DNA of 64,000 nt from an uncultured Thermoleophilia bacterium (GTDB taxonomy: Bacteria > Actinomycetota > Thermoleophilia > UBA2241). This document shows, in pieces, positions 39,981 through 57,095 of the stretch (position 1 is its first letter; each line of letters begins with the position of its first letter). Below the pieces are notes generated by a model. That model saw only the letters and a program-made list of their open reading frames with translations. It had not been told where the DNA came from and did not search any database. Position numbers and translations under genes: made by a program. The stretch spans positions 13,054-77,053 of the forward strand of contig CAWBNR010000012.1 in the NCBI GenBank assembly GCA_963790185.1, in the 5' to 3' direction.

Positions 39981-40111
39981 GCCGCGCGAGAGGCGGGTGA
40001 GCGGCGCGACGGGCAGGTGAGCCGCGCGCCGCAGGTGTCGTAACATACGGGGTCAGGGATGGGAGCCGCCTGTCGCGCCCACCCCAGTCGCCGTCGGACG
40101 AAAGGCTGCCG

Positions 40112-41377
40112 TTGCTGCTCCAGGGCAACCTCAGGGAGTTCAGCCTCCCGAACATCTTCCAGCTGGTCAAGATGAGCGCCAAGAGCGGCGCGCTCACGAT
40201 CCGGCGCGACGAGGAATGGGGCAAGATCTTCTTCACGAACGGCCTCATCAACTACGCCTTCTCGGTGCCGCAGCAGCTGCCGCTCGGCGAGCGCCTGGTG
40301 CAAGCCGGCATGCTCAAGCGCGCACAGCTCAAGCAGGCGCTGTCCGCGCAGAAGAAGGCCGGCAAGGAGGGACCGCGCATCGGCACGATCCTCCTCGAGA
40401 AGGTGTTTCTCGAGCGGGCGCAGCTCGAGCAGGCCGTGCGCGACCAGATCCAGGACGCCGCCTTCGACTTCTTCAGCTGGGCCGACGGCGAGTTCTCGTT
40501 CAGCGCCGAGGAGCGGCCCGACGACCAGGACATCCTGGTCGAGATGAACGTCGAGAACGTCATCATGGAGGGCTGCCGGCGCATCGACGAGTGGGAGCTC
40601 ATCTTCGAGCACCTCGGGTCTCTCGAGCGCATCCCGCACCTCGCCTGCAACGTCGGCGTCGAGGACCGCGGCGAGGTGCGACTCACGCCCGACGAGTGGC
40701 GCGTCGTCGTACACATCGACGGGCGCGCCGACGTCAACACCATCCTGCGCGACTGCGGACTCGACCGCTTCCACGGCGCCAAGGTCATATACAGCCTCTT
40801 CTCGAGCGGCCTGGTGACCGTGTCGGAGCCGGTCATCGACGGCATCGGCAAGGGGGTGAGCATCTGCGTCCGCGGGCTGATCGACATCTACAACGAGGTC
40901 TTCCTTACCACGCTGACCGACTCGAACGTCACCAAGCAGCTGCGCGTCGAGCTCATCGACGAGAAGGAGATCGAGGTGCCGATCGTGGCCGGCACCCTGA
41001 CGGAGCCCGGGGGTGAGACCGAATCCGAACTCGGCGCCATCGGCGACGTCCTCGTCTACACCTCCGTGAACTCCGCGCCCGAGATCGCCTGGGCGCGCAT
41101 CGCCCGCGACGCCTCGGCTTTCGTGCTGCTGGTCAACGCCAACGATCCCGACAGCTTGCGCGCGGCCCGGCCCGACATCGCCTTCGCGAAGGGGTACGAC
41201 GGTGTGCCCTTCGTGGTGGCGACGTACACTACGATGGTCGACGATGCCGTCGAGCCCGACGCCGCGCGCAAGGCGCTCGGCGTCGGGCTCGACGTCCCCA
41301 TCGTCGCCTGCAGTCTGCGCGACCGCACGTCGGTGACCGGCGTCGTGCGCGCGGCCATCGATCTGGTCGGGGGCTGA
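40112..41377 (+). CDS. DUF4388 (PATAN) - MshEN-like - degenerate small-GTPase-fold protein
   Basis: LQGNLREFSLPNIFQLV...GEFSF (DUF4388); tandem LGxxLVxxG..L..L..Q motifs; C-terminus resembles MglA/CvnD GTPases lacking G motifs. Confidence 0.75.
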   Translation: MLLQGNLREFSLPNIFQLVKMSAKSGALTIRRDEEWGKIFFTNGLINYAFSVPQQLPLGERLVQAGMLKRAQLKQALSAQKKAGKEGPRIGTILLEKVFLERAQLEQAVRDQIQDAAFDFFSWADGEFSFSAEERPDDQDILVEMNVENVIMEGCRRIDEWELIFEHLGSLERIPHLACNVGVEDRGEVRLTPDEWRVVVHIDGRADVNTILRDCGLDRFHGAKVIYSLFSSGLVTVSEPVIDGIGKGVSICVRGLIDIYNEVFLTTLTDSNVTKQLRVELIDEKEIEVPIVAGTLTEPGGETESELGAIGDVLVYTSVNSAPEIAWARIARDASAFVLLVNANDPDSLRAARPDIAFAKGYDGVPFVVATYTTMVDDAVEPDAARKALGVGLDVPIVACSLRDRTSVTGVVRAAIDLVGG

Positions 41378-41412
41378 GCGGCGCCCCTCATGCGATGAAA
41401 GGACGAGCGTAG

Positions 41413-42384
41413 ATGTACTACCCCAGCTATCGGATGCGACGTCTGCGCCGCACCCCGACGGTGCGCCGCATGCTGCGCGAGACGACGCTGTCCCCCGACG
41501 ATCTGATCTACCCGCTGTTCGTGATCCACGGCGAGAACGTGAACAACCCGATCGAGTCCATGCCGGGGTGCTCCCAGCTCTCGATCGGCAACCTGCTGGC
41601 CGAGGTGCGCGAGGTCGCGCAGCTCGGCATCCCGGCCGTGCTCCTCTTCGGGATCCCGTCGCACAAGGATTCGGCGGCGACCGCCGCCTACGATCCGGAG
41701 GGCATCGTCCAGCTCGCCGTGAAGGCGATCAAGGACGAGGCGCCGGAGTTGCTCGTGATCACCGACGTCTGCCTCTGCGAGTACATGGACCATGGCCACT
41801 GCGGCGTGGTCCAGGACGGCGAGGTCCTCAACGACGTGACCCTCGAGCTGCTCTCGAAGATGGCGGTCACGCACGCCGAGGCGGGCGTCGACCTGGTCGC
41901 CCCCTCGGACATGATGGACGGGCGCGTCGCCGCGATCCGCAACGCGCTCGATGACGAGGGTCTCTACGACGCCGGCATCATGGCGTACTCGGCCAAGTTC
42001 GCCTCGGCCTTCTACGGTCCGTTCCGCGAGGCGGCCGAGTCGACGCCGTCTTTCGGCGATCGCAAGACCTACCAGATGGACCCGCCCAACGGTGAGGAGG
42101 CCGTCCGCGAGGTGCTCCTCGACATCGAGGAGGGCGCCGACATCGTCATGGTCAAGCCGGCGCTGCCGTACCTCGACGTGATCCGCGCCGTCAAGCAGGA
42201 GACGCGCTTCCCCCTGGCCGCGTACAGCGTGAGCGGCGAGTACGCGATGATCAAGGCCGCGGCCGAGAAGGGCTGGCTCGACGAGGAGCGCTGCGTCCTC
42301 GAGGCGATGACCGGTATCAAGCGCGCCGGCGCCGACCTCCTCATCACGTACTGGGCGAAGGACCTGGCGCGCTGGCTCGGGTGA
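41413..42384 (+). CDS. hemB: Porphobilinogen synthase
   Basis: RMRRLRR, DVCLCEYMDHGHCG zinc site, APSDMMDG, AYSAKFAS, VMVKPALPYLD. Confidence 0.97.
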   Translation: MYYPSYRMRRLRRTPTVRRMLRETTLSPDDLIYPLFVIHGENVNNPIESMPGCSQLSIGNLLAEVREVAQLGIPAVLLFGIPSHKDSAATAAYDPEGIVQLAVKAIKDEAPELLVITDVCLCEYMDHGHCGVVQDGEVLNDVTLELLSKMAVTHAEAGVDLVAPSDMMDGRVAAIRNALDDEGLYDAGIMAYSAKFASAFYGPFREAAESTPSFGDRKTYQMDPPNGEEAVREVLLDIEEGADIVMVKPALPYLDVIRAVKQETRFPLAAYSVSGEYAMIKAAAEKGWLDEERCVLEAMTGIKRAGADLLITYWAKDLARWLG

Positions 42385-42398
42385 GGCGGGTGGCAGGC

Positions 42399-43520
42399 GT
42401 GACGCATCCGGAGGCCGACGACGCGGTGACGCCGCGCGGCGGCGACACCGCGGAGGTCGCGCCGCCGCGCGTCGTCGCCTGGGAGGTCACCCGCAGCTGC
42501 AACCTCGCCTGCAGCCACTGCCGCGCCTCGGCCGAGCGCGGTCCGTACGAGGGCGAGCTGACGACCGCCGAGGCCTTCGAGCTCGTCGATCAGATCGCCT
42601 CGTTCGCGGACCCCATCCTGATCCTCACGGGCGGCGACCCGCTCATGCGCGACGACGTGTTCGACATCGCCGCTCGCGGCATCGAGAAGGGCCTGCGCGT
42701 CGTGATGTCGCCGAACGGCACCCTGGTCACGCCCGAGGTCGCGCGCCGCATGAAGGAGGTCGGGGTCGGGCGCATCAGCGTCTCGATCGACTTTCCGACG
42801 GCCGCGGAGCACGACGAGTTCCGCGGCGTCTCCGGCGCCTTCGACGGCGCCGTGCGCGGTATCCGCAACGCGCTCGCCGCCGGTGTCGAAGTGCAGGTCA
42901 ACTCGACGATCACCAAGCTCAACGCGCACCATCTGCCGGCGCTGCTCGCCCTCAGCGAGGAGCTCGGCGCCGTCAGCTTCCATCCCTTCATGCTGGTGCC
43001 GACCGGCCGCGGCAAGGAGCTCGAGGAGCAGGAGCTCCCGCCCGAGGAGTACGAGCGCGCCCTCGAGTGGATGTTCGACGCGCAGCAGACGTCGGCGCTC
43101 TTCCTCAAGCCGACCGACGTGCCGCACTACTGGCGCGTCATGCGGCAGCGGGCGAAGGCGACGGGCAAGAAGATCGAGGTGCACCCGCACAGCCACGGTG
43201 GCCTGCACACGCTCACCCGCGGCTGCCTCGCCGGGCTCGGGTTCTGCTTCATCTCGCACCGCGGCGAGGTGCAGCCCTGCGGCTACTTCGACAAGGTGGC
43301 GGGCGACGTGCGCCAGACGTCGTTCCTCGAGATCTGGCGCACGTCGCCGCTCTTCATCGAGCTGCGCGACTTCGACCGGCTCAAGGGCAAGTGCGGCGTC
43401 TGCGAGTTCAAGAGGGTCTGCGGCGGCTGCCGCGCTCGCGCCTACGAGGCCACCGGCGACTACATGGCCGAGGAGCCCTACTGTGCCTACGTGCCGAAGG
43501 GCTGGTGTCCTCCGGAGTGA
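42399..43520 (+). CDS. ahbD: Radical SAM/SPASM heme biosynthesis protein, AhbD (or AhbC)-like
   Basis: AWEVTRSCNLACSHCRA (CX3CX2C), SPASM CLAG...CGVC...CGGCRARAY; follows hemB. Confidence 0.75.
   Translation: MTHPEADDAVTPRGGDTAEVAPPRVVAWEVTRSCNLACSHCRASAERGPYEGELTTAEAFELVDQIASFADPILILTGGDPLMRDDVFDIAARGIEKGLRVVMSPNGTLVTPEVARRMKEVGVGRISVSIDFPTAAEHDEFRGVSGAFDGAVRGIRNALAAGVEVQVNSTITKLNAHHLPALLALSEELGAVSFHPFMLVPTGRGKELEEQELPPEEYERALEWMFDAQQTSALFLKPTDVPHYWRVMRQRAKATGKKIEVHPHSHGGLHTLTRGCLAGLGFCFISHRGEVQPCGYFDKVAGDVRQTSFLEIWRTSPLFIELRDFDRLKGKCGVCEFKRVCGGCRARAYEATGDYMAEEPYCAYVPKGWCPPE
43412..43515 (+). repeat. Left copy of a ~104-bp direct repeat (3' end of the ahbD-like gene)
   Basis: Aligns to 53714-53818 with 8 substitutions and 1 indel. 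Confidence 0.93.
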
Positions 43521-43581
43521 TGGCAGCCGGGTCCGATGTCGGCCCCTTCCGACCGCCGCCGATCGCGCCGTCGGCTCGGCT

Positions 43582-44989
43582 TTATCCTCTCGGCGGCAGA
43601 GTCACTCGGCACGACGTGCCCCCGCCAGGGTGGGCGGCCAGCCGGATGGTCCCACCGTGCGCGCCGGCGATCTCCTGTGCGACGGCGAGTCCGAGACCGG
43701 TCCCTTCCGAGGACCGAGAGGAGTCGCCGCGATAGAAGCGCTCGAAGACGTGCGGAAGGTCGACGTCCGCGATGCCCCGCCCAGTGTCGACCACCTCGAT
43801 CTCGATCGCGTCCGCCCTGCGCGACGCCGTGACCGTCACTGCTCCGGCGTCCGTGTACTTGATGGCGTTGTCGACGAGGTTGACGAGGAGCCGCACGAGG
43901 GCGTCGCCGTCGCCGTCCATCGCTAGACCGTCGTCGATCTCGCCGACGAGTTCCAGGCCGCGAGCCTGAGCGACGATGTCCAGGGACGCGACGACGTCGC
44001 GCAGCAGCTCGCTGAGGTCGACACGCTGAGGCGCCTCGAACCTGCCGGCGTCACCGCGCGCCAGCTCGAGCAGGTCGCTCGACGAGGGTGTTGAGGCGCT
44101 CGGTTTCGGCGTCGATGTCGTCGAGTGCCTGCTCGTACTCGTCGGCCCCGCGCGGCCGACCGCGCGTGACCGCGACGATCGCGCGCACCGCCGCGAGCGG
44201 TGTGCGCAGCTCGTGCGAGGCATCGGCCACGAAACGGCGCTCGACGTATCGAATGAGTCCTCGAGCCGGTCGAGCATGGCGTCGAAGGTCGCTGCGAGTC
44301 GACCTACCTCGTCGCCGCCGTGCAGCACCCCAAGGCGCTGTGAGAGGTCAGACGGCGAGATGGCTGCGGCCGTGCTCGTGATCCGTGCGAGTGGCCGCAG
44401 CATGCGTGCGATGAGCAGGTAGCCGAGCAGCGCCGCGACCGCGGCCGCCAGTGGCAGCAGCACAAGGAGCGTCAGGCGCAGCTGCTGCAGCGTGTCCACC
44501 AGCGGTTCCTCGCGACATGGCGACGCTGAACAGGGCAACGGTCGTGCCGTCTTCGCGGAGCGGTGTGGTCAGCACACGTGAGCGCGCGCCGGTGGTAGGG
44601 TCGATGCGGGTCTCGAAACACCTCGTCACCCCGCGCTTGTCGCAGCCAAGGTCGCTGAGGTAGGGGGAGATTGCTCGTACGTCCCGGACTGCCGGAGCGT
44701 GGCTCCGCTGGGCGAGAACACGACGAGGCTCAGTCCGGGTACGCTGGAGGTCGTCGGCAGTCGGCTTCCTCGTCAAGCCGCGGGCCCAGCGTACGAAGTG
44801 CCCGTTCTGGACGTTGGCACCGGCCATCGCCTGCGCCGTTGCGGTACGCAGCGAGTCGTCCAGAGCGGCGACCAATCAGGCGCTGCGCGTGCCGTAGTAG
44901 ACGACGAGCCCGACGACGGCGAGCACGATGAGGACCAGTATCGCGATGCCGAGTGACAGGCGGGCGCGCAGGCTCCTAGGTCGCAGCAT
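43582..44989 (-). CDS. HAMP sensor histidine kinase (frameshifted)
   Basis: Start MLRPRSLRARL; FVADASHELRTPL; RLLVNLVDNAIKY; GTGLGLAVA. Confidence 0.85.
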
Positions 44990-45669
44990 CGTCCTGCTCC
45001 GCCGAGAGTCGGTAGCCGGCGCCGCGCACCGTGTGGATCAGCTTGACCGCGGCGCCGTCGTCGAGCTTGCGGCGCAGGTTGCGGATGTAGACGTCGACGA
45101 CGTTCGAGTGGTTGAAGACGTCGTAGTTCCAGACGTGCTCGGCGATCTGTGTGCGCGTGAGCACTCGCTCGGGCTCGCGCATGAGGCACTCGAGCACCGC
45201 CATCTCCTTGGCCGTGAGCCCGATCCGGCCGCCCGCCGCGCTCCACGCGGTGGGTGAGCGTGTCGAGGCTGAGGTCGGCGATCTGCAGCACGCTCGTTCG
45301 AGGCTGGTCGTCGGCCCGCCGAGTGAGCGCGCGCAGCCGCGCCAGCAGCTCCTTGAGCGCGAACGGCTTGACGAGGTAGTCGTCGGCGCCAGCGTCGAGG
45401 CCGGCGACGCGATCGTCGACGCCGTCGCGGGCGGTGAGCATGAGGATCGGTGTCTTGACGCCGCGAGCACGGAGCTGCCGACACACCGTGAGCCCGTCGA
45501 GTCCGGGCAGCAACAGGTCGAGGACGATGACGTCGAAGGGCACGCCGCTGGCCCACTCGAGAGCCTCACGGCCGTCGTGCGCCACGTCGACCGCGTAGCC
45601 CTCCTCCTCGAGGCCGCGCTTCACGTAGGCGGCGATGCGCCGCTCGTCTTCGACGATGAGGACGTGCAT
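44976..45669 (-). CDS. OmpR-family response regulator (frameshift near 45.23 kb)
   Basis: MHVLIVEDE, VLDLLLPG, GADDYLVKPF, LTAKEMAVL, VVDVYIRNLRRKL. Confidence 0.9.
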
Positions 45670-45715
45670 GCACCACCTCTGGTCGTTTGCCGGTACATCC
45701 AGTGTACGCGGGCGA

Positions 45716-45744
45716 CATGAAATCCACATGAAAGCCAGATGAAG
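45716..45744. promoter_or_regulatory. Triple 11-bp-periodic box upstream of the response regulator
   Basis: CATGAAA (45716), CATGAAA (45727), GATGAAG (45738). Confidence 0.65.
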
Positions 45745-45783
45745 AAGGAGGCGGGGGCGGCTGTGCGCCCCCTCCGCCGGCCG

Positions 45784-46617
45784 TCAGGTGCCCGTGCCGC
45801 TATGGGAATCTGCGGCTGGGCGCGGCGCCGTCAGGGAGCCGGCATTGACGTCGGCCCGAGACGATTCCACCGCCGGGCTCCTTGCGGCGGCCACCTCTTG
45901 CCCGGCGGGGTCGGCCTTCTCGTCGGCACCCTGCTCGTGGTCGTTGGTGTCGGGCGGGCCGGCGGTCGCCGCGACGACCAGCGCGACCGACGCGGTGGCG
46001 ACGAGCCAACCGGCGAGCAGGTCCGACGGGTAGTGCACGCCCAAGTAGGTGCGGCTGAAGGAGACGAGCAGCACGAGCGGAGCCCCGCAGGCGACAGCGG
46101 CCCAGCGCGCGCGTGTGTGCCACAGGACGAGGCACAGGACAATGGCGAGGGCCGCGGTGACGGTAGCATGACCGCTGGGGAAGGAGGCGCTCGTCTCGTG
46201 CACGAGTGGAGCGAAGACGTGGGGTCGCGGCCGGCCGAAGAGCAGCTTCAACGTCACCTCCAGCGCCCCCGCACCGGCGACGGCCAGGACGACGGACAGG
46301 GAGGTACGAGGCCGCCGGAACAGCAGCAGCGCCGCTGCCGCCGGCATGGTCAGCAGCGCGATCGAGAACCACGAACCGAGCTGTGTGACGGCGCGCATCA
46401 CGGCATCCTGGGTATCACCGTGCAGCCGTTCCACGGCCCGCAGCGCGGCGATGTCCCAGCCGCTCAGGCCCAGCCGAAAGACGAGGACGCTGAGGAGCGT
46501 GAACGCCCCGAGGGCGACTGCCCAGACAAGTACGGCCCGGAAGCGGACGCCCAACTCAGGCGCCGTCGGCTGCTCAGCCACACGACCACGTGCCGAGCAC
46601 ATGCATTGGATCTCCAT
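45784..46617 (-). CDS. PAP2-family phosphatase (undecaprenyl-PP phosphatase-like)
   Basis: KLLFGRPRP, SFPSGH, SRTYLGVHYPSDLLAG; start uncertain. Confidence 0.88.
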   Translation of the reverse strand: MEIQCMCSARGRVAEQPTAPELGVRFRAVLVWAVALGAFTLLSVLVFRLGLSGWDIAALRAVERLHGDTQDAVMRAVTQLGSWFSIALLTMPAAAALLLFRRPRTSLSVVLAVAGAGALEVTLKLLFGRPRPHVFAPLVHETSASFPSGHATVTAALAIVLCLVLWHTRARWAAVACGAPLVLLVSFSRTYLGVHYPSDLLAGWLVATASVALVVAATAGPPDTNDHEQGADEKADPAGQEVAAARSPAVESSRADVNAGSLTAPRPAADSHSGTGT

Positions 46618-47154
46618 CGACCGGCGAGCGTTTCTCGTTCCTGGATGCGCGACGAGCACGACAGGTTTGGGCCAGCGACAGGACGATGATGCCGATGACC
46701 AGGTACTCGAGGTTCTGCGCGATGAAGGGGATCGCGCCGAAGAGGTAGCCGGCCGCAAGGAGCACCGAGACCCAGGCCAGCGCGCCGGCAACGTCGAAGA
46801 GCGTGAAGCGGCCCCGGTCCATGCGCGAGATCCCCGCGACGAACGGCGCGAACGTCCTCACGAACGGGACGAAGCGAGCCAGCGAGACGGCCTTGCCGCC
46901 GTGCCTGGCGAAGAGCGTGTCGGTCTGGGTGACATGCCCGGGCTTGATGACCCGGGAGAAGCGGCCGTCATCCAGGACGCGGCGGCCCCATCCTCGACCG
47001 ACAGAGTAGTTGGCGGCGTCACCACCACAGCCGTCTCCATGAAGATGGCGAGAAAGAGCAGGGCGTAGATCCGCGCACCGTAGGTGATGGCCCATTCTCC
47101 GAGAACGACGTCCGGGTGGAGTATGAAGTCGATGAGCGACGTGACGGGGCTCAC
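46574..47154 (-). pseudogene. dedA: DedA/VTT family protein with an internal deletion and frameshift
   Basis: [15 protein letters not shown] joins directly to [10 protein letters not shown]; later [17 protein letters not shown]; the PGDSLL segment is missing. Confidence 0.75.
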
Positions 47155-47198
47155 GCGATCTCCTCGTGGTGACCTGCCGTCTGAACCTGGCGGTGGAA

Positions 47199-47227
47199 CA
47201 TGAAAGCGGCATGAGACTGTGATGAAG
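47199..47227. promoter_or_regulatory. Triple 11-bp-periodic box upstream of dedA
   Basis: CATGAAA (47199), CATGAGA (47210), GATGAAG (47221); matches 45716-45744. Confidence 0.65.
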
Positions 47228-47258
47228 GGGCGCGGGCGGGGGCTGCCCGCGCCCCTTC
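47224..47258 (-). terminator. GC-rich hairpin terminator after the lipoprotein gene
   Basis: Perfect 14-bp stem GAAGGGGCGCGGGC/GCCCGCGCCCCTTC with a 7-nt loop. Confidence 0.65.
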
Positions 47259-47276
47259 GCGTTCCGGGGAGGGGGG

Positions 47277-47861
47277 CTACTCCCCGGCCGCCTCGCCGGT
47301 CCCGGCGTCCTTGGCTACCGTGGCCGTCGCCGGCTGGAAGCCGGGGGCGCTCACCTGGACGTCGAAGACCACCTCGTTCTGCGAGGTGCGATACAGGCTG
47401 TATTGGTTCTCGGGGTAGTGTCCTGCTCCGCTGCCGCCATCGAAGTAGACCGTCTTCGTCTCCCCGGGCGCCAGCGTGAGGCCGGTCAGTTTCTGGTAGT
47501 AGCCTTCAGTCTCCTTCGTCTTCGAGTCGGCCATCTGATAGAAGATCTCGAGGTCACTCATCGTCTCCGTGCCGGCGTTCGTGAGGTCTATCTGCAGCTG
47601 GTCCGGCAGGGCCTGTTGAGTAGCGGAATCGACGTTGTTCTCCACCATGATCGACGTGACCTCCAGCCCGGCCTTGGTCGCGGTGTTGACGATGGGGTTG
47701 CTGTCGACGGGGAGGACCTGTTCGGAACTCCGGGTAGCGGCGGCGCTCGGTGAGGCGTTGCCCGACGAGGCGGTGTTCGAACTGGAACAGCCACCCAGTG
47801 CGATGGTGCCGATGATCGCCGCCACGATGCCGATGAACCCGACGACTTGCCTAGCCTTCAT
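47277..47861 (-). CDS. Hypothetical lipoprotein (beta-rich)
   Basis: [25 protein letters not shown] lipobox; last gene of the ABC operon. Confidence 0.75.
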
Positions 47862-47862
47862 G

Positions 47863-48831
47863 TCATGCCTTTCGTAGGAGCTTGCGTTTGTTGGTCTGAG
47901 TGACCGCCAGGCCGACGGCGACCAGAGCGCCGCAGATGAGCCAGACGACATTGGTCCACATGCCCTTGCTGATGTAGCTGAGGGATCGCTGGTTGTACTT
48001 GTCCTTCACGCCGAGATAGGCGAAGCTGACGCGCTCGTAGCGCTTGCTTATCGAGGATGTTTCCAGCAGGTTGCGGGTCCGCTCGTAGCCTGCGAAGTGC
48101 GCCATGACCGCCTTCTCGTGTGGTTTGTCGACCTGCAGGCTGTTGAAGAGCCCACCCGGCACCTGGTTGTCCGGGTCCATCGTGTCGCCGATCTGAGGGA
48201 CGATGAGGACGAAGCCGAGCCACAGGATCAGGCCCACCACGAGAGCTGTGCTGAGCTGTTTCGTGAAGCCTGCGAGGCCCATCGCGAGAGCACTCCACAG
48301 GAACAGGTAGACCCACGAGAAGCCGAGGGCGATGGCGAGCTTCGTGAGTTCGATGGATGAGAGACTCGCGCCGCCGACGAAGCGGATCGAGACGATCATG
48401 ACGACGCCCAGGGCCACGACGACCGACAGCCAGATGACGGCGAGGGCCAGCAGCTTGCCGGCTGCGATCGCAAAGTCGCTCACCGGACGGCTGAAGAGCA
48501 GCCGAAGCGTACCCCTGTTCTTCTCCTTCGCCGTCATGCCATAGCCGATCACGATGGCGACGATCGACCCGATGATCTCGAGGTACTCGATGGTGCCGCG
48601 CAGGAGCTGCAGCGGGAAGAAGAGAGGTGCTGTGGCGGCGCTCCCTCCGGCTTGCTTCAGAGCGTCGAGGTAGTGCTGGTAGTCGACCACTTTCGCGTGA
48701 TATGCGGACGCGGCGACGACGACCGAGAGGACGACGACGACGCTCAGTCCCGCGACGAGCAAAAGGATGAGCCGGCTGCGCAGTGCGTCGCGGAGCTCCT
48801 TGCGGAAGATGACCAAGGACGGCCTATTCAT
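47863..48831 (-). CDS. ABC-2 permease
   Basis: AKEKNRGTLRLLFSRPVSDFAIAAGKL motif; multi-TM. Confidence 0.85.
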   Translation of the reverse strand: MNRPSLVIFRKELRDALRSRLILLLVAGLSVVVVLSVVVAASAYHAKVVDYQHYLDALKQAGGSAATAPLFFPLQLLRGTIEYLEIIGSIVAIVIGYGMTAKEKNRGTLRLLFSRPVSDFAIAAGKLLALAVIWLSVVVALGVVMIVSIRFVGGASLSSIELTKLAIALGFSWVYLFLWSALAMGLAGFTKQLSTALVVGLILWLGFVLIVPQIGDTMDPDNQVPGGLFNSLQVDKPHEKAVMAHFAGYERTRNLLETSSISKRYERVSFAYLGVKDKYNQRSLSYISKGMWTNVVWLICGALVAVGLAVTQTNKRKLLRKA

Positions 48832-49729
48832 AGAGAGGCCTTCTCAGCGATGACCGGCTGACGAGGGCGAGCGCCGTGACACTCAGGGTGGCGATGACGA
48901 CCAGGGAGAGGAGGTCTCCGCCGATCGCTGAAGAACCGGCGTCCCGCAGGTGCAGGATCGCGCCGCTGGCGTGCTTGAAGTGCTCGGTGATCGACACGGG
49001 TTGCAGAGCCACCTGATTGACCTTGAAGAACAGGTCGGTAGTGGAGGCCGCCGAGGCCACGGGGTTGAGCAGGGCCGACGGGCTCTGCGCCGTGCCGAGT
49101 TGCGGGATGACGAACACCACCGTCACCCAGACGAGGATGGGTATCAGCAGCGCCGTCGACTCGTGGCGGCTTCTCGCTCCGGCGATGATGCCGAGGGCGG
49201 AGAACGACAGAAGGAAGAGCCAGGCCAGCGCGAAGAACTCAGCCAGCGAAGCCGTTTCCGACAGTGAGAGCGGTGTTCCCAGCACGACCCAGACGCTGAA
49301 CCAGCTGGCGAGCATGGCGGCGGCGAGAACGATGCCGATCCACGCGTGCACCCCGAGCAACTTGCTCAGCATGTAGGCACGCGTTCCCATCGGCCGCGAC
49401 AGGATCAGGTCGGTCACTCCGGCCTTGCGGTCGCGCACCGCCGAGCGCACGCCGACGACGGTCGCGAGCAGGGCGCCGATGAGGACGATGTAGATGATCG
49501 TGTTGCGCGTGATGTCGAGATGCGACACCCCGGCGAAGGGATTGGGCACGTTGCGACCCATCTGAATGACGGTCTGGTCGTACACGCTCATCACCGTGTG
49601 ATGAGTCGCCCAGCCGATCGAGCTGGAGACCAGTGCCATCCCGAGGAAGACGCCGAGCAGGGCCATGGCCAGCCGCTCTCGCGTCGCTGACCTTATCTCC
49701 TGCTTCGCGACCACGAAGATGTCGTTCAC
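48824..49729 (-). CDS. ABC-2 permease
   Basis: VRDRKAGVTDLILSRPMGTRAYMLSKL motif; multi-TM. Confidence 0.85.
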   Translation of the reverse strand: MNDIFVVAKQEIRSATRERLAMALLGVFLGMALVSSSIGWATHHTVMSVYDQTVIQMGRNVPNPFAGVSHLDITRNTIIYIVLIGALLATVVGVRSAVRDRKAGVTDLILSRPMGTRAYMLSKLLGVHAWIGIVLAAAMLASWFSVWVVLGTPLSLSETASLAEFFALAWLFLLSFSALGIIAGARSRHESTALLIPILVWVTVVFVIPQLGTAQSPSALLNPVASAASTTDLFFKVNQVALQPVSITEHFKHASGAILHLRDAGSSAIGGDLLSLVVIATLSVTALALVSRSSLRRPLYE

Positions 49730-50477
49730 GCGGCGTCCGTTTCGATCTGCAGGTAGATCTCCTCGAGAGAATCCTGCCCGGGGAAGGAGCCGAGCGTGCG
49801 CTCCAGCGAGTCGTGGTAGATCAGGCGCCCGGCTCTCAGGATCCCGATGCTCGTGCAGGTCTTGGTGACCTCGGCGAGCAGGTGCGTGTTCATGAAGATC
49901 GTCATGCCCAGCTCTCGGTTGAGGCGGATGATCGTGTCGCGCAGCATCTTGACACCGGTGGGGTCGAGACCAGAGGTCGGCTCGTCGAGGAAGAGCACCG
50001 ACGGCTCGTGGAGGATGGCCTGAGCGATGCCGACGCGTTGACGCATCCCCTTGCTGAAAGTCGATAGGCGCTCGTCGTCGTGACCCTCGAAGTCGAGGAA
50101 GCTCAGGACCTCGCTGATGCGGCCGGCCGGCTTTGCGATGCCGGACAGGCGGGCGAAGAAGGCGAGATTCTCCTTCAGGCTGAGGGCGTCGTAGAACTCG
50201 ACGTTCTCGGGCAGGTAGCCGATGGACCTGCGCACCTCGAGGCTGTCGCGAGCGACGTCGTGGCCGTTCACCTCGGCGCCACCGGCGGAAGGGTCGAGGA
50301 GTGTCGTCAGGATGCTCACGGTGGTGGTCTTGCCGGCTCCGTTGTGGCCGAGGAGGCCAAACACTTCGCCCTGCTTCACGTCGATGGTCAGGTCTGCCAG
50401 GGCGGGCTTGCCGTTGTACGTCTTGGTCAGGCCGCTGGTCTGGATCGCGGTCTCGTTCACAGGCGTGCAGTGGTCAT
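49726..50477 (-). CDS. ABC transporter ATP-binding protein (start at GTG 50460, or ATG 50477 with an indel)
   Basis: GHNGAGKTT, FSKGMRQR, LDEPT. Confidence 0.92.
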
Positions 50478-50546
50478 GATCAGGGTTTCCTCCCGGTCGA
50501 GTCGGCGTGGTGTCATCCCACTCCGGGGAAAAGACTAGACTGGAGA

Positions 50547-50564
50547 CCTGAAGAAGGCCTGAAA
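50547..50564. promoter_or_regulatory. 11-bp-periodic box between the divergent ABC and TCS operons
   Basis: CCTGAAG (50547), CCTGAAA (50558). Confidence 0.45.
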
Positions 50565-50688
50565 GAAGAGCCCAAGCATCCCGCGCGCCACTCGCGCGCG
50601 TGTACTCTGCGGGCCATGCGAGGATGCCGATCGGGCCTCCGGCGCTGCGCTTGAAGAGGTCATACGGCGGCGGCATACTGCGGGAGCC

Positions 50689-51357
50689 ATGAGCCGAGCG
50701 AGCATACTGATCCTCGAGGACGACCTTGAGATGAGATCCCTCCTCGTGCGTGGTTTGCGCGAGGAGGAGTACGAGGCGGAGGGCGTCGGGAGCGGCGCAC
50801 AGTTGCTCGACTGGGTGACGCGCGCCGTCCCCGACGCCTTCATCGTCGACATCGGTCTGCCGGATGCCGATGGGCGCGACGTCGTGCAGGCCCTCCGCGC
50901 CCACGGCATCCGGGCGCCGGTGCTGTTCCTCACGGCGAGGAGTGCTCTGCCCGACAGGCTGTCGGGCTTCAGCGCCGGTGGCGACGACTACCTCACCAAG
51001 CCGTTCGACTTCGCCGAGCTGGTGGCACGCTTGGGAGCGCTGCTGCGACGCGCCGGTCACGACGACGGCGTCATGGCCGGCGACCTGCGACTCGACCCGG
51101 CTTCGCATGCGGCGGAGTGCAGTGGCGTGACCGCCGACCTCACCCCCACGGAGTTCCGACTCCTCGCGCTTCTTGCGGCCGTGCCGGGCGAAGCGGTGCG
51201 TCGGCGCAGACTCGTTCAGGCGGCTTGGCCGCACGGCGCCATCGTGCACGACAACACCCTCGACGTGTACATCGCTCGCTTGCGTCGCAAACTCGCTGGA
51301 CTACCCAGGGCGCCGCGCATCCATACCGTGCACGGCGTCGGCTACTCGCTGCGATGA
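50689..51357 (+). CDS. OmpR-family response regulator (PrrA/MprA-like)
   Basis: ILILEDD, IVDIGLPD, GGDDYLTKPF, LTPTEFRLL, LDVYIARLRRKL. Confidence 0.93.
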   Translation: MSRASILILEDDLEMRSLLVRGLREEEYEAEGVGSGAQLLDWVTRAVPDAFIVDIGLPDADGRDVVQALRAHGIRAPVLFLTARSALPDRLSGFSAGGDDYLTKPFDFAELVARLGALLRRAGHDDGVMAGDLRLDPASHAAECSGVTADLTPTEFRLLALLAAVPGEAVRRRRLVQAAWPHGAIVHDNTLDVYIARLRRKLAGLPRAPRIHTVHGVGYSLR

Positions 51358-52718
51358 AGCAGCGCCTCGGTGTCCGAACGCGACTCTTGATCGTCGTCGT
51401 CATCTCGGTCAGCGTCGCCCTTGCCGTGACGATTGCCGGGTTCAACCTTCTCTTGGCGCGCAGCCTCTCCGGCGATGCCGACTCCATGGTGCGCGCCAGG
51501 GCCGAGGCCGAGGCGGCCGGCATCGACGTGACGGAAGACCGCGTGACGCTCCCCGATCAGCCTGACAACGGTGGGCTGGAGGGCCAGGCATGGGTCTTTC
51601 GGGGAGGTCGTGCGCTGGAGACTCCCAATGTGAGCGAGGTCCTTACCGATGCGGCGCAACGTGTAGCAGCGACCCCTGGGCAGCTGGTGGATGTTCCCGG
51701 TCTGCACACACGGTTGTACGCGATACCGGCGAGTGACGCTCCCGAGGTGGTAGTGGTCGCCGGCGTCTCTCTGACTCCCTACGAGCGTACGCAACGCACG
51801 GCGTTGATCGGCTCCTTCGTCCTCGCGGGGCTGCTCCTTCTGGTGGTTGTCTTGGTCGTCCGCTGGATGCTGCGCCAGGCGTTGCAGCCCGTTGCACGCA
51901 TGGCCACCGACGTCGACTCCTGGAGCGAACACGATCTCGACCGACGATTCGCGGTCGGCGAACCCTACGACGAACTCAGCCAGCTTGCCGCGACGCTCGA
52001 CGGGCTCCTTGACCGCATCTCCGCGAGTCTGCGTCGCGAGCAACGGTTCTCTGCCGAGATGTCGCACGAGCTGCGCACGCCCTTGGCCAAGGCGCGGGCC
52101 GAGGCGGAGCTGGCCCTGCGCCGTCCGCGCCCGTCAGATGAGTATCGAGCGGCTCTTGAGACGATCGTCCGCTTCACGCGACAGATGGACGCTGTCGTCG
52201 ATACGCTGGTAGCGGCCTCGCGACAAGAGAGCGGCCTTGCCCGGGGAACCTGTGGTGTGGGACTCGTCCTCGAGCAGACCGCGGAGTCGTGCGAGGGTCT
52301 GGCCGTTGCGCGCGGCCTGCGCATCGTCGTGGAGACTCCGGCCAGCCGACTCACCCTCGGTGTCGACAGCGACGTTGCAGCCGGGGTACTCAAGCCTCTG
52401 CTTGAGAACGCCTGCCGGTATGCGCATGCCGAGATCAAGCTCAGCGGGCGCCGCGACGGTACGTTCGTCGTCTTGCGCGTCGAAGACGATGGACCCGGAG
52501 TGCTCCCCAGCGAGGTCGAGCCCATCTTCGAGCCAGGTGTGCGCGGCAGCGCTGCCGCGGCGGACGCCCCGCGTCTGGAGGACGAGGTGACCGGCATGCC
52601 GGACGGGGCCGGTCTCGGGCTCGCGCTGGCTCGCCGCCTCGCGCGTGCTGCCGGCGGTGACGTCGTGGCGACGGGCGCCCCCAGCGGCGATTTCGCAGCA
52701 CGACTTCCGGCCGGCTGA
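51354..52718 (+). CDS. HAMP sensor histidine kinase
   Basis: Two TM, FSAEMSHELRTPL, LLENACRYA, VEDDGPG, GAGLGLALA. Confidence 0.92.
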   Translation: MKQRLGVRTRLLIVVVISVSVALAVTIAGFNLLLARSLSGDADSMVRARAEAEAAGIDVTEDRVTLPDQPDNGGLEGQAWVFRGGRALETPNVSEVLTDAAQRVAATPGQLVDVPGLHTRLYAIPASDAPEVVVVAGVSLTPYERTQRTALIGSFVLAGLLLLVVVLVVRWMLRQALQPVARMATDVDSWSEHDLDRRFAVGEPYDELSQLAATLDGLLDRISASLRREQRFSAEMSHELRTPLAKARAEAELALRRPRPSDEYRAALETIVRFTRQMDAVVDTLVAASRQESGLARGTCGVGLVLEQTAESCEGLAVARGLRIVVETPASRLTLGVDSDVAAGVLKPLLENACRYAHAEIKLSGRRDGTFVVLRVEDDGPGVLPSEVEPIFEPGVRGSAAAADAPRLEDEVTGMPDGAGLGLALARRLARAAGGDVVATGAPSGDFAARLPAG

Positions 52719-53106
52719 GTGCCCACGCTCGGAGTCGAGCGAATCCATCGCCGTGCACGGCGGTGTCGCAGGGTGCGAACAGGATTCAGGGCCACGAGAT
52801 CGCCGAGGCGGTTGGCGCGACGCTCGCCATGCCCTGGCGTATCCTGCGCCGACGCTTCCCGGGGCGACTTGGCCCACGACGACCGAAGGCGCCTCCATCG
52901 CTGCCGCGCCGAGCGTGCCCGACCGGGTGACGGTGTTGGCGTCGGGTCCAGACTCACGCTCGAGAGTACGCGATCTCTTCGCGTCCTCACGCTCGCTCCG
53001 CGAGCCTAGGTTACGAGTGTCTCGGCGTGAAGCTGTTGCGACGCGGGCCGGCTCGAAGCCGGCCCGCGTCGCGGAGACCGAAGGCACTTACGGGTGGGTC
53101 GGGTGC

Positions 53107-53451
53107 TTACTCGACGCCTTCGAACTCATGGTCGACGTTGTCACCGGTGTCCTGGTGACCTCCGCCCGGCAGGTTTTCGTCACCGGCCTCTTCCGCACTC
53201 GCGGACTCGGACTCGGTGGCCTCCGTCGCATCGTCGGCGGCGTTCTGGTCGCCGACCTCTTCCTGCACGGCGTCGGTGTCCGGCAGGTTGGCGTCGGCCT
53301 CGGCGGCCTCGGCCTGATCGGTGGCGACTGCTGCGGCCGCCGGCTGCGGTGACGCCGGTGTCGCTGCACCGGCGCGCACGGCGAAACCGCCGGCGGCGGC
53401 GACCGCGAGAACGGCGACCGCCGCCATCGTGGCGATCTTGATCTTGTCCAT
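53107..53451 (-). CDS. Small secreted acidic protein (hypothetical)
   Basis: Signal-peptide-like N-terminus; D/E-rich body ending GDNVDHEFEGVE. Confidence 0.65.
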   Translation of the reverse strand: MDKIKIATMAAVAVLAVAAAGGFAVRAGAATPASPQPAAAAVATDQAEAAEADANLPDTDAVQEEVGDQNAADDATEATESESASAEEAGDENLPGGGHQDTGDNVDHEFEGVE

Positions 53452-53503
53452 GGTGTCTTCTCCTTGTCTCGTTTGACTGACGATGCGACTCTAGGAGCCA
53501 GGG

Positions 53504-53531
53504 ATGAAGCCCTCGTGAAGCGGTTGTGAAG
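53504..53531. promoter_or_regulatory. Triple 11-bp-periodic box upstream of the acidic protein gene
   Basis: ATGAAG (53504), GTGAAG (53515), GTGAAG (53526). Confidence 0.55.
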
Positions 53532-53713
53532 GGCTGTCACCCGGAGACGGGGCGGGCCTGTCGCGCCCTTGTCACGTGGGCTTCGTCGGCCGTCGCCACG
53601 CTCGTTGCCAGCCGCGGGCACCGGGCCCGCCTGGGGAGTCACACGGAGACGGGAATCATGCCATTAGGGATCAGGGCGAGGATCATCGCGAGCGCGGCGG
53701 CCGCGCCGCTCGC

Positions 53714-53829
53714 GAGGGTCTGCGGCGGCTGTCGCGCTCGCGCCTACGAGGCGACCGGCGACTACATTGGCGGAGGAGCCCTACTGCGCGTACGTGCCGC
53801 GGGGCTGGTGTCCACCGGCCGCGCCCTGA
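53714..53829 (+). pseudogene. Orphan 3' fragment of the ahbD-like gene (right copy of the direct repeat)
   Basis: Encodes RVCGGCRARAYEATGDY(+1)AEEPYCAYVPRGWCPPAAP-stop versus ...VPKGWCPPE-stop in the intact gene. Confidence 0.9.
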
Positions 53830-53841
53830 CGGCGCGCCCGC

Positions 53842-54378
53842 CTACTGCTCAGCGATGAAGTGTCGCTGCAGGCAGATGAGCTCGTCGGTCAGACCGGCAC
53901 GCCGGTAGACCCCCTGGGCGCGCCGGTTGTCGCGGCTGGTGATCACGCCGATCTCGGCGCACCCGTCGGCTTTGAGACGGCGCATGGCCTCGCGCACGAG
54001 GGCCTCGCCGATCCCCTGACCCTGCGCCGACGGGGTCACCGTCACGTCCTCGATCTCGCCGGCGGGGGCGGCGTGGTAGAGGTCGAGGGTCAAGGAGTAC
54101 GAGAGCAGGCCGACCGGCCCCTCGGGACCGACCGCGAGCAGGATGTGGGCGCCGGACTGCTCGAGGTAGCGCCGCACGAAGACCTCGTCGACGGTCGTGC
54201 CGTGGGCGAAGTCGCGGCCCATCTCGACGACGAGGCGCACGACGGCCGCCTCGTCGCCGGCGCCGGCCTCACGGATCTCGAGGTCGGCGGGGCGGTCCGG
54301 GCGCCGCCGACCCTCCCCCGGTTTCTTCGCCCGCCCGCCTCCGGACCTTCGCGGGCCGGTGTCTCGGCCGACCCTCAC
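53842..54378 (-). CDS. GNAT acetyltransferase
   Basis: EIEDVTVTPSAQGQGIGEALV, NRRAQGVYRRAG; GTG start overlapping the upstream stop inferred. Confidence 0.85.
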   Translation of the reverse strand: MRVGRDTGPRRSGGGRAKKPGEGRRRPDRPADLEIREAGAGDEAAVVRLVVEMGRDFAHGTTVDEVFVRRYLEQSGAHILLAVGPEGPVGLLSYSLTLDLYHAAPAGEIEDVTVTPSAQGQGIGEALVREAMRRLKADGCAEIGVITSRDNRRAQGVYRRAGLTDELICLQRHFIAEQ

Positions 54379-54833
54379 AGGTGCCGCTCGAGCAGCAGGG
54401 ACGCGTCGGTGAAGCCCAGCCGCCGATAGAGCCGCTGGGCGCCCTCGTTCTCGAGCCCCGTGGAGACACCGATCTCGGCTACGCCGAGCCCTTCGAGATG
54501 CGCCATCGTGTGGCGCAGGAGCGCGGTGCCGGTGCCGCGCCCGCGGTGGGCCGCGGTCACGATCGCCTCGTCGACGGTGGCGCAGTCGGCGGCGTGGTAG
54601 AGCCCGGGGAAGAGGAACCATGTGACGACGCCGATGACCTCGCCGTCGATGTCGGCGACGAAGGCGCCTGCGTCCTCTCGGGCGAGGAAGGTCTCGACCC
54701 AGGCGGGCGCGACCGCCGAGCGCTCGCCGAAGGCGGCCGCCATCTCGCGGATGAGGCCGGCGATCGCGGCGGCGTCGACCGGCCCCGCCGCCCTGATCGT
54801 CGGTGACACGCCTGTTCGAGCGTCGTCCCTCAC
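54375..54833 (-). CDS. GNAT acetyltransferase
   Basis: VDEAIVTAAHRGRGTGTALL, NEGAQRLYRRLGF. Confidence 0.88.
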   Translation of the reverse strand: MRDDARTGVSPTIRAAGPVDAAAIAGLIREMAAAFGERSAVAPAWVETFLAREDAGAFVADIDGEVIGVVTWFLFPGLYHAADCATVDEAIVTAAHRGRGTGTALLRHTMAHLEGLGVAEIGVSTGLENEGAQRLYRRLGFTDASLLLERHL

Positions 54834-54842
54834 CCGGCCTCC

Positions 54843-54881
54843 TTGTGCGACATCTCACATGAGCCGCCGACCACGTAGTAT
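54843..54881 (+). promoter_or_regulatory. Rex-like (TGTG-N7-TCACA) operator and -10 element of the hemL-rex operon
   Basis: TTGTGCG-ACAT-CTCACAT at 54843-54860; TAGTAT at 54876-54881. Confidence 0.5.
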
Positions 54882-54918
54882 ATGGGGAGTCCCTGAGTCC
54901 GTCCTGTTGGAGGAGCGC

Positions 54919-56199
<1,281 letters not shown>

Positions 56200-56211
56200 C
56201 GAGGAGTCCCC

Positions 56212-57066: not shown

Positions 57067-57095
57067 TTGACACTGCATCCCCCCGATGGTAGATA
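57067..57095 (+). promoter_or_regulatory. Promoter candidate for the peptide ABC operon
   Basis: TTGACA (57067-57072) - 17 nt - TAGATA, in an AT-rich island. Confidence 0.4.

Follow-up and report, generated by a model that had tools for sequence, protein, structure and literature searches.

How does a gene for heme b synthase, ahbD, come to have its 3' end twice, with some 10 kb of other genes in between? The locus (Table 1) lies in a stretch of 64,000 nucleotides, the window, from a metagenome-assembled Thermoleophilia genome, here called G000. An earlier note on this DNA proposed ahbD as the target into which an integrative element had inserted, and left open whether an element without recombinase had decayed, was mobilised in trans or had entered by homologous recombination. 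Among these options the data favour homologous recombination. We consider it fairly probable that the structure arose by homology-facilitated illegitimate recombination with displacement of the 3' end, that is, by import from a related strain and not by a self-integrating element.

Table 1. Features of the ahbD locus, in window coordinates
Feature	Coordinates	Strand	Basis and remarks
hemB (ALAD), native backbone	41413-42384	+	Pfam ALAD in L233 annotation; 99% amino acid identity to G011
ahbD, heme b synthase, radical SAM/SPASM	42381-43520	+	NCBIfam equivalog TIGR04545, 508.6 bits (cut-off 500); Radical_SAM and SPASM domains
Probable homologous recombination joint, left end of putative imported tract	42666-42671		Maximum chi-square
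Left copy	43412-43515	+	Functional final 34 codons of ahbD; donor-type but mosaic
Left junction: new tail (GAG TGA, PPE*) and island left-end spacer	43516-43581		L233 aligns continuously
HK1, histidine kinase, disrupted	43582-44990	-	Pfam HAMP and HATPase_c, no HisKA
RR1, OmpR-type response regulator	44979-45729	-	Only receiver domain in frame; frameshift ~45232, output domain out of frame
PAP2-family phosphatase	45784-46560	-	PAP2 domain; resembles undecaprenyl-diphosphatase at family level only
DedA/VTT-family membrane protein	46574-47212	-	VTT_dom; NCBIfam DedA match at profile positions 85-214 of 219 only
Four-gene operon, all ORFs intact	47277-50520	-	Pfam
Operon: conserved hypothetical, 224 aa	47277-47951	-	
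Operon: ABC-2 permease	47863-48831	-	Pfam
Operon: ABC-2 permease	48824-49729	-	Pfam
Operon: ATPase	49726 to about 50520	-	NCBIfam drrA/lantibiotic-protection type models, under cut-off
Second two-component system, both genes intact	50689-52718	+	Pfam
RR2, OmpR-type	50689-51357	+	Pfam
HK2, 454 aa	51354-52718	+	Pfam; called protein P0220
Small acidic ORF, signal-peptide-like N-terminus	53107-53451	-	Adjoins module in L049 and L153 too (tblastx, blastn)
Island right-end non-coding DNA	53452-53713		Ends at non-homologous joint with right copy, 53713/53714
Right copy	53714-53818	+	Recipient-type 3' end of ahbD, displaced; one inserted T shifts its frame
Native ahbD tail (...AAP, TGA 53827-53829) and 12-nt spacer	53819-53841		Identical to sequence after G011 ahbD
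Two GNAT acetyltransferase genes, native right flank	53842-54833 (53842-54378; 54375-54833)	-	Pfam; called protein P0340; closest G011 and L236

The repeated gene end and the cargo between its copies

The ahbD 3' end at 43412-43515 recurs at 53714-53818, and alignment of the two copies returns the 8 substitutions and 1 indel that had been counted before, the indel being an inserted T in the right copy (~92% identity). The copies are 10,198 bp apart, the longest exact words common to both are at most 20 nt, and upstream of 53712 no ahbD homology precedes the right copy. The extra T, at 53767/53768, breaks the frame. When it is removed, six of the differences are synonymous third-position changes and the other two fall in one AAG/CGG (K/R) codon, in agreement with the earlier reading; differences that are nearly all synonymous are what two alleles, each once functional, should show. 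The left copy terminates in CCG GAG TGA (PPE*), and the right copy would, if in frame, terminate in PPAAP*. The stop codon attributed to the right copy is thus present, at 53827-53829, but the copy as it stands is frameshifted. The identity of 92% gives no date for the duplication, because the nucleotide sequence of the ahbD 3' end is 85-96% conserved across the family.

Between the copies lie a kinase/regulator pair, PAP2, DedA, a hypothetical protein, two ABC-2 permeases, an ATPase, an OmpR-type regulator and a second kinase; Pfam thereby confirms the two two-component systems, dedA/PAP2 and ABC exporter that were read from the window at the outset. The composition check proposed for the island gives a GC3 of 0.72-0.87 for the cargo, below the 0.91-0.96 of the flanks. 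The four-gene unit of ATPase, two permeases and hypothetical protein is found in many Actinomycetota. The last ~1 kb of the island has a small acidic, secreted-looking ORF (53107-53451) as its sole ORF, and this ORF matches no Pfam family. At the level of families only, the cargo may be described as a regulated envelope module, consisting of an ABC-2 exporter with its two-component system, PAP2 and DedA, where the latter two give a hint of polyprenyl-phosphate handling; the scores of the PAP2 protein against the NCBIfam SepP/UppP models are far under the cut-offs.

In G000, DedA and the first two-component system appear to have lost their function. Relative to the intact gene of L233, an island-bearing contig described below, HK1 has nine or ten insertions of 1-2 nt, and its HisKA segment, present in the L233 kinase, is out of frame from ~44074 to 44246 (the frames differ between tblastn segments). 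The L233 counterpart of RR1 is intact, with Trans_reg_C. The N-terminal third of DedA is missing or out of frame in comparison with its homologue in L153, a more distant relative, where the region has ~111 nt more; the frame changes at ~47014-47023. A domain search bears out that no recombinase is encoded in the island, and finds none in its L233 and L153 versions or on contig C12. The window has no tRNA, and five tyrosine-recombinase genes occur elsewhere in G000.

Empty sites, junctions and a donor-type tract

At least 20 genomes of the family have an empty site, where ahbD is followed directly by GNAT/hemL(-rex), and the empty site was checked over its full length at 10 loci (9 relatives, one with the locus in two copies). 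The predicted arrangement, with an ahbD ending in PPAAP* straight before the GNAT genes, is found for example in G011, the nearest relative, and the claim of a genuine insertion is upheld by such sites. The PPAAP* tail and spacer of G011 are identical to those behind the right copy, G011 is the closest sequence in every window of the right flank (53842-56890), and the flanks align to G011 cleanly with few gaps. The sequence to the right of the right copy is in the empty-site configuration, which speaks for the right copy as the displaced original 3' end.

The left junction recurs in another sample. L233, an independent JGI metagenome contig, matches 42422-46358 at 94.2%, unbroken across this junction; its AhbD protein (P0217) ends in ...PRGWCPPE, and its gene order is ahbD (PPE*), HK, RR and PAP2, within which the contig ends. 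For the island right end, 53452-53713, homologues are absent elsewhere in G000 and in 20 relatives, and it does not align to the right end of the L153 island. A Logan contig, L237 (run ERR12035932), equals 53772-55131 at 100% and so runs from the 3' part of the right copy across the spacer and through the GNAT genes; it breaks off at 53772, just beyond the inserted T. Assemblies independent of G000 thus cover the left junction (L233) and the DNA from 53772 onward (L237), the joint 53713/53714 being known from G000 only. Homology underlies the left joint and appears to be lacking at the right one, between island and right copy.

Where does the foreign DNA begin? In the hemB region G000 groups with G011 by site patterns, and breakpoint analysis identifies ahbD as recombinant, with ~290 nt at the 5' end that are G011-like and a remainder that is L233-like. 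The affinity of G000 switches at 42666-42671 from the empty-site G011 to the island-bearing L233, with a maximum chi-square of 42.9 that was reached in 0 of 2000 permutations. To the left of 42666, 203 sites link G000 to G011 and 47 link it to L233; in the remainder of ahbD, beginning at 42671, the numbers are 8 and 22, and ~8 of the sites on this right side are shared-derived states of G000 and L233 (outgroups L153 and G007). G000 and L233 diverge by 5.5-8% in the flank and by 1.3% over 42671-43304; dS between them is 0.20-0.26 in genes of the flank, 0.09-0.14 in RR1 and 0.04 in PAP2. Since the switch lies ~750 nt upstream of the repeat, the foreign DNA starts inside ahbD and not at the repeat. 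The left copy sits in this donor-type tract, in accordance with its proposed role as the replacement that arrived with the cargo and with the view of two allelic C-termini from different lineages.

The cargo is patchy, occurring in 3 of the 89 genomes of the family/order set, where the other two have it in different contexts. Presence and absence are distributed as ((G000+, G011-), (G007-, L153+)). In L153 a related island fills the same slot behind a native-type ahbD tail (PPAGP*), and a search for a second ahbD 3' copy in it gave a best local score of 29, compared with 22±3.4 for shuffles and reached by 15 of 300 of them, i.e., none. From this follows that the cassette can occupy the slot without an att-like repeat. 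Among the other genomes of the set and 160 loci there is no second ahbD 3' end; the candidate G070 was ruled out as a duplicate of the whole locus.

A proposed origin and its rivals

In the proposed history, the ancestral G000 lineage would have had the empty order hemB-ahbD-GNAT-GNAT-hemL-rex, as G011 has today. DNA would have been taken up from an L233-like lineage which already had the cassette directly downstream of ahbD, the incoming fragment reaching from within ahbD through the entire cassette. Its left end would have recombined homologously in ahbD at ~42666-42671, whereby the donor allele, and with it the left copy and the PPE* tail, would have taken the place of the final ~850 nt of the gene. 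Its right end, because it had no homologous partner, would have become linked illegitimately to recipient DNA at the counterpart of position 43412. With the joint at this position, the final 104 nt of the recipient ahbD would persist, together with the PPAAP* tail and the spacer, as an orphan beyond the cassette, and this orphan would have been frameshifted afterwards. We infer the direction of transfer, the single event and the illegitimate nature of the right joint. The event would be ordinary in kind, with a scar that is unusually legible.

Some states fit this scheme less directly. The left copy shares the bases of the right copy at 43414, 43436, 43457 and 43508, and these four may stem from the repair of a heteroduplex or from a later conversion. 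Compared with G011, the right copy has 10 differing sites and an indel in 104 nt, followed by 0 differences in the next 35 nt, and its CGG codon agrees with the G007/L153 clade and not with G011, so that it is not a clean G011-like allele. Three states are common to both copies and missing from both G011 and L233; conversion or mosaic repair is therefore needed, and this counts against the proposed import.

It is doubtful that the island is a decayed or trans-mobilised site-specific element, similar to a CIME, with the 104-nt copies as attL and attR, an attP that carried the replacement ahbD 3' end and an integrase that is lost or encoded elsewhere. CIMEs are a known class (PMC5704250), and foreign cargo of lower GC3 between direct repeats of a gene 3' end, a working stop codon supplied by the island, a slot filled in three lineages and the tyrosine-recombinase genes elsewhere in G000 all speak for such an element. 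However, donor-type DNA extends ~750 nt upstream of the supposed attL, the L153 cassette has a native tail and no repeat, and an integrase is absent from all three versions of the island, which differ by up to 20%. Neither an integrase-bearing relative nor another duplicated ahbD end is found among the 89 genomes and 160 loci, and elsewhere the cassette is found in unrelated contexts without ahbD fragments. The same observations disfavour ahbD as an attachment site, and the suggested search for the cargo joined to ahbD-like ends and integrases returned no such element from these genomes and loci.

Another history, rather unlikely in our estimate, has two steps. The cassette came in by double crossover in both flanks, or was inherited, and a later fragment of an empty allele, homologous in GNAT/hemL and illegitimate in the island right end, left the right copy, tail and spacer behind when it failed to delete the island. 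The final structure would be identical; island-bearing and empty alleles co-exist in the genus, the right copy, tail, spacer and first GNAT gene are in perfect empty-site configuration, and no alignment is obtained between the island right ends of G000 and L153. Yet two events are invoked where one suffices, and the right flank has no tract of different origin.

The switch at 42.67 kb could also be made by the assembler, since G000 is a 76% complete MAG (2.3% contamination) from a strain-mixed sample with at least one strain variant of the island at 98.5%. The arrangement of copies and island would then be real but long-standing in an L233-like strain, the apparent crossover being a strain switch in a chimeric contig. 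The 98.5% variant is seen for the ABC genes in the same run, and the odd cluster of +1/+2 insertions in HK1 could reflect errors of the consensus where strains were mixed. This explanation is quite improbable: G000 and L233 differ by 1.3-6% even within the tract, so that no sampled strain matches, the flanks are gap-poor against G011, and exact words this short cannot lead a k-mer assembler astray at the repeat. A misjoining of the island right end to a right copy from a co-occurring empty-site strain is very improbable, for while the right copy resembles a selected allele with mostly synonymous differences, L237 breaks just past the inserted T and the sample is strain-mixed, there is no common sequence to link the island right end with mid-ahbD, the frameshift is unexpected in the gene of a functional strain, and the long contig is collinear with relatives in its other parts.

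Comparison with known systems

Homology-facilitated illegitimate recombination (de Vries & Wackernagel 2002, Prudhomme et al. 2002, Meier & Wackernagel 2003, as cited in PMC5361080) is the closest match to the import proposed here, in that one end would be anchored by homology (the ahbD tract from ~42.67 kb) and the other joined without it, with foreign genes trapped beside the anchor. The G000 case differs in that it is read from natural sequences and not from a transformation experiment, and in that the illegitimate joint would lie inside a stretch homologous to the anchor, because of which 104 nt and the tail are duplicated and no recipient DNA is deleted.

Displacement of C-terminal (3') ends, leaving orphan ends, is described at rhs, CDI and T6SS effector loci (Jackson et al. 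2009; Kirchberger et al. 2017, PMC5361080). There, as here, a new 3' end comes with the cargo and is anchored by the gene's conserved 5' portion, and the old end is moved downstream as an orphan. In contrast to those polymorphic toxins, ahbD encodes a heme b synthase with a housekeeping role and a near-invariant C-terminus, its displaced end confers nothing and has no immunity gene, and a regulated transporter/envelope cassette of 10 kb makes up the cargo.

CIMEs, which keep attL and attR but have lost their integration genes, are reviewed together with integrase-less ICE/IME remnants at gene 3' ends (PMC5704250), and islands also occur at ssrA or tRNA 3' ends, e.g., the Dehalococcoides vcr islands (PMC3146451). 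The likeness lies in direct repeats of a gene 3' end that bound the cargo, a replacement end that keeps the gene intact and the missing integrase. The G000 island departs from them in that its foreign-DNA boundary is not the repeat, a sister island has no repeat, and no integrase-bearing relative of it is found.

Flexible genomic islands exchanged through conserved flanking genes are likewise patchy among close relatives, and the island of G000 and L233 is less diverged than their flanks. In G000 only one flank would have been used for homologous exchange, and for this reason the scar remains.

Repeat and empty site

The left (L) and right (R) copies of the ahbD 3' end, listed with the other features in the table below, differ by eight substitutions and one extra T in R, and the 104-nt repeat is 92% identical. 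Six of the substitutions are synonymous third positions and the other two fall in one AAG/CGG codon, a pattern that the earlier note had described and that our alignment of L and R reproduces. The 379-codon radical SAM/SPASM gene that ends with L scores 508.6 bits with TIGR04545, the NCBIfam equivalog model of the heme b synthase AhbD (cut-off 500), and contains the Pfam domains Radical_SAM and SPASM. Heme synthesis is predicted to be unaffected, because ahbD is still intact. R as it stands is frameshifted, and upstream of about 53712, beside R, there is no homology to ahbD.

Throughout the family, nucleotide identity over the final ~105 nt of ahbD is 85-96%, and from this follows that the ends of any two members would resemble the L/R pair; the repeat by itself is not diagnostic. 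Among 89 genomes of the order a second ahbD 3' end was found in none but G070, where the whole locus is present in two copies, which are probably two strains binned together. The split ahbD of two other relatives, G012 and G022, would be either assembly frameshift errors or pseudogenes.

Features of the window and of related loci
Feature	Position or accession	Description
Gene upstream of hemB	40112-41377	not a heme gene; matches PatA_N and an MshEN-type c-di-GMP-binding motif
L	43412-43515	last 34 codons of ahbD; terminus CCG GAG TGA (PPE*)
Island	43516-53713 (10,198 bp)	kinase/regulator pair, PAP2, DedA, conserved hypothetical, two ABC-2 permeases, ATPase, divergent OmpR-type regulator with its kinase, small acidic ORF
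Insertions in first kinase (HK1) and regulator (RR1)	44073-45232	clustered; reference genes in L233 intact, 94% identical
Small acidic ORF	53107-53520, minus strand	hydrophobic N-terminus; kept beside the ABC-2 module in L153 and L049, elsewhere within the cassette there
R	53714-53818	reads ...PRGWCPPAAP* when the extra T is removed
Stretch downstream of rex	56970-61998	identity to G011 falls from ~96% to 86%; GC3 0.75-0.85
L153	JGI Ga0209164_1000968	related island, 78-82% nt identity, without PAP2, between ahbD and GNAT-hemL-rex
L233	JGI 3300063012, Ga0598299_0005730	hemB, extra methyltransferase, ahbD (...PRGWCPPE*), intact kinase, intact regulator, PAP2
Extra methyltransferase	L233 3123-3923	266 aa, SAM-dependent, between hemB and ahbD
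G070 loci	C9 and C5 (L131, L132)	hemB-ahbD-GNAT-hemL-rex region twice, 88-96% identity, both with empty site
Split ahbD	G012:C5:440445-441661	two or three pieces, differing frames
Split ahbD	G022:C7:432892-433861	two or three pieces, differing frames

The empty site that the earlier note predicted, with ahbD ending in PPAAP* straight before the GNAT genes, is present in the nearest relative (G011), where the gene order is hemB-ahbD-GNAT-GNAT-hemL-rex, AhbD is 98% identical to that of the genome under study (G000) and the flanks are ~96% identical in nucleotide sequence. The 12-nt spacer and the GNAT stop codon that come after ahbD in G011 are those that come after R in the window. The empty arrangement recurs in all other genomes of the family whose flanks are long enough, which brings the number to at least 20. 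From this arrangement in the relatives follows that the insertion is the derived state, and that R and the DNA downstream of it stand in the ancestral configuration. In the tree of concatenated hemB, ahbD, hemL and rex, ((G000,G011),(G007,L153)), the presence of the island is scattered. The view that the island is a vertical relic, lost from G011 by recombination between L and R, is rejected, since G000 and L233 are much more alike in the island and the 3' part of ahbD than they are in the flanks.

Breakpoint within ahbD

Consider the sites that vary among G000, G011 and L233, classed by which two sequences agree. Over 39506-42666, G000 sides with G011 at 203 sites and with L233 at 47; over the remainder of ahbD, which begins at 42671 and is counted with a frameshifted stretch of L233 left out, the corresponding numbers are 8 and 22. 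The maximum chi-square, 42.9, falls at a break within 42666-42671 and was reached in none of 2000 permutations; about 8 of the sites at which G000 agrees with L233 are shared-derived in relation to L153 and G007. Across the break the divergence between G000 and L233 falls from 5.5-8% outside the tract to 1.3% inside it, while the right flank is nearest to G011 in each 200-nt window. The breakpoint together with the G011-like right flank thus delimits a foreign segment of about 42671-53713, which would begin within ahbD, ~750 nt before L, and end at the joint between the island and R.

Between G000 and L233, dS is 0.20-0.26 in the flank genes, 0.16 in ahbD, 0.09-0.14 in RR1 and 0.04 in PAP2; between G000 and G011 it is about 0.08-0.15 in the flanks, and between G000 and L153 it is 0.35-0.54 in the flank genes and 0.42-0.78 in the island genes. 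By this pattern, the lineages of G000 and L233 exchanged the island, along with a portion of ahbD, after their hosts had diverged.

L233 aligns with window 42422-46358 at 94.2% identity, unbroken through the left junction, so that this junction is confirmed by an independent sample; the contig stops short of the right junction. The joint at 53713/53714 and the linkage across 42.67 kb are both based on one contig of the metagenome-assembled genome (MAG), and a Logan contig (L237, run ERR12035932) matches 53772-55131 exactly. A switch between strains by the assembler could possibly account for the breakpoint at 42.67 kb; it could not account for the joint at R, because the longest exact word shared by L and R is at most 20 nt.

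Two allelic origins of L and R, which follow from the recombination proposed below, would explain why their differences look like those between two selected alleles. L departs from L233 towards R at 43414, 43436, 43457 and 43508, which we read as mosaic repair of a heteroduplex or as later conversion between the copies. Three states common to L and R had first suggested that they are simple sister duplicates, but L233 places L in the donor tract, with L deviating from L233 towards R at these four sites.

Proposed recombination and possible integration at the 3' end

The data fit homology-facilitated illegitimate recombination with displacement of the 3' end, an explanation that we hold slightly more probable than not. 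A homologous joint would have formed within ahbD, with the donor-type tract adjoining the insert, and a non-homologous joint would have linked the right end of the island to the recipient sequence where it corresponds to 43412. The last 104 nt of the recipient's gene, with tail and spacer, would thereby have been stranded downstream as the orphan R, in which the inserted T would be later decay or a consensus error.

The donor-type tract adjoins the insert, as seen from the maximum chi-square and the drop in divergence. R is followed by tail, spacer and first GNAT gene exactly as in G011, and the suggestion of the earlier note that R is the displaced original 3' end is upheld. A donor-like allele, ahbD(PPE*)-HK-RR-PAP2 at 94% identity, exists in L233, and L153 carries a more distant version. 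Non-homologous joints of this type mostly form at microhomologies of a few bases; the right end of the island has no similarity to ahbD upstream of 43412, and the donor's right end is absent from the L233 contig. Compared with G011, R has 10 differing sites and one indel, with no differences in the next 35 nt, and its CGG codon is the state of the G007/L153 clade; R is hence no purely G011-like allele. The outcome at ahbD of G000 is the same as in the C-terminal displacement described for rhs, CDI and T6SS loci (PMC5361080 and the literature that it cites), and the present case adds one more instance to a known class of events and reveals no new mechanism.

Direct repeats derived from the 3' end of the target, as expected for att sites, are also what the 104-nt copies provide, and such repeats arise by homology-facilitated illegitimate recombination as well. 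It could be argued that the ultra-conserved last ~100 nt of ahbD are a recurrent landing site, in these Thermoleophilia-type actinobacteria, for a family of integrase-less envelope-stress cassettes, which a recombinase with its gene at another locus would mobilise in trans. L would then be attL, R would be attR, and the donor tract in ahbD would stem from an unrelated conversion. Had the island excised, the circular junction would then read …GCCGCTCGCG + one repeat + AGTGATGGCAGCC…. We regard this as improbable. Independent insertions bounded by att sites were found neither in L153, which has its native tail and no second copy, nor in any other of the 89 genomes. No ORF of 43.5-53.7 kb has a recombinase domain, as the earlier note had remarked, and there is no recombinase in the island versions of L233 and L153 or anywhere on the G000 contig that holds the window; nor is there a tRNA in the window. 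The proposal that the heme-synthase gene is the target of an integrative element is thus not upheld, given the donor tract upstream of the repeat, the missing recombinase and the single ahbD end of L153, and among the options of the earlier note, entry by homologous recombination fits best, with the donor tract inside ahbD. Site-specific integration, as in a CIME, would set the limit of the foreign DNA inside the repeat, while the donor tract starts at 42666-42671. A single Campbell-type crossover confined to the 104 nt would do so too, and it is dismissed as the sole event because the donor tract reaches upstream of the repeat.

Where direct repeats of a gene's 3' end bracket foreign genes, they are routinely taken for an integrase footprint. 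In the present case such a footprint is accounted for better by homologous recombination on one side only, involving an island-bearing and an empty allele, and the event was caught in uncultured actinobacteria with donor-like, empty and intermediate states all in public data. For pipelines that call islands it is a cautionary case, in that 3'-end repeats do not equal integrase activity, and it shows in nature a process for which most of the knowledge comes from transformation in the laboratory.

Cargo, occurrence and neighbouring slots

The window is part of a MAG of 2.44 Mb, 76% complete, with a GC content of ~70%. In the GC and codon profile that the earlier note proposed, the island genes stand apart, with GC3 of 0.72-0.87 against 0.91-0.96 in the flanking genes. 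Relative to L233, HK1 has ten insertions of 1-2 nt and RR1 has one (eleven in total), with zero deletions, and because of these insertions the HisKA domain of HK1 and the output domain of RR1 are out of frame in G000. DedA is without its N-terminal third. Indels relative to G011 are almost absent in the flanks. With these changes in HK1, RR1 and DedA, part of the cargo may truly have been inactivated, or the consensus may contain errors where strains are mixed. For HK1 and RR1, insertions without any deletion are unusual for natural decay, and strain mixture may have produced them as an artefact of the consensus.

At the level of families, the cargo consists of an ABC-2 exporter that has an OmpR-type two-component system of its own, together with a phosphatase of the PAP2 family and a member of the DedA family. 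The PAP2 and DedA families include undecaprenyl-diphosphatases and undecaprenyl-phosphate transporters. A role of the cargo in envelope stress or antimicrobial tolerance is suggested by these assignments. A more specific identity, as a bacitracin or lipid-carrier resistance cassette of the BcrAB-BcrC/UppP and UptA type, is not supported, since the likeness is at family level only and the cargo proteins fall far short of the cut-offs of all specific NCBIfam models (SepP, 65 bits against 250; UptA, 43 against 250; lantibiotic-protection ATPase, 182 against 310). A PDB search with the ABC-2 permease gave no relative, a search for homologues of the non-coding DNA at the right end of the island found none, and proteins identical to AhbD, to the ABC-2 permease or to the products of ten ORFs near the two junctions were confined to the genome's own records.

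The ABC-2 module is patchy, in 3 of 89 family genomes, and occurs also in many more distant Actinomycetota. In the other two family genomes (G059 and G060) its contexts are unrelated, beside a heavy-metal ATPase/ArsR in one and beside BNR and AAA_14 proteins in the other, with neither ahbD nor an integrase there. At ahbD the cassette is found on two contigs, L153 and L233, and the search that the earlier note proposed, for cargo joined to ahbD-like ends plus integrases, finds ahbD ends there and no integrase in either island version. The ahbD of L153 has a native-type tail (PPAGP*), and a second ahbD end, decayed ones included, does not rise above the shuffled background there. L153 excepted, none of 160 fetched loci has an ahbD fragment beside the cassette; L235, L238 and L239 represent unrelated contexts or the empty site.

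The gap between hemB and ahbD, occupied in L233 by the extra methyltransferase gene and reduced in G000 and G011 to an overlap of 4 nt, is a second variable slot of the heme gene cluster. The stretch downstream of rex is another variable one, in which a family-5 solute-binding protein is apparently split into several ORFs.
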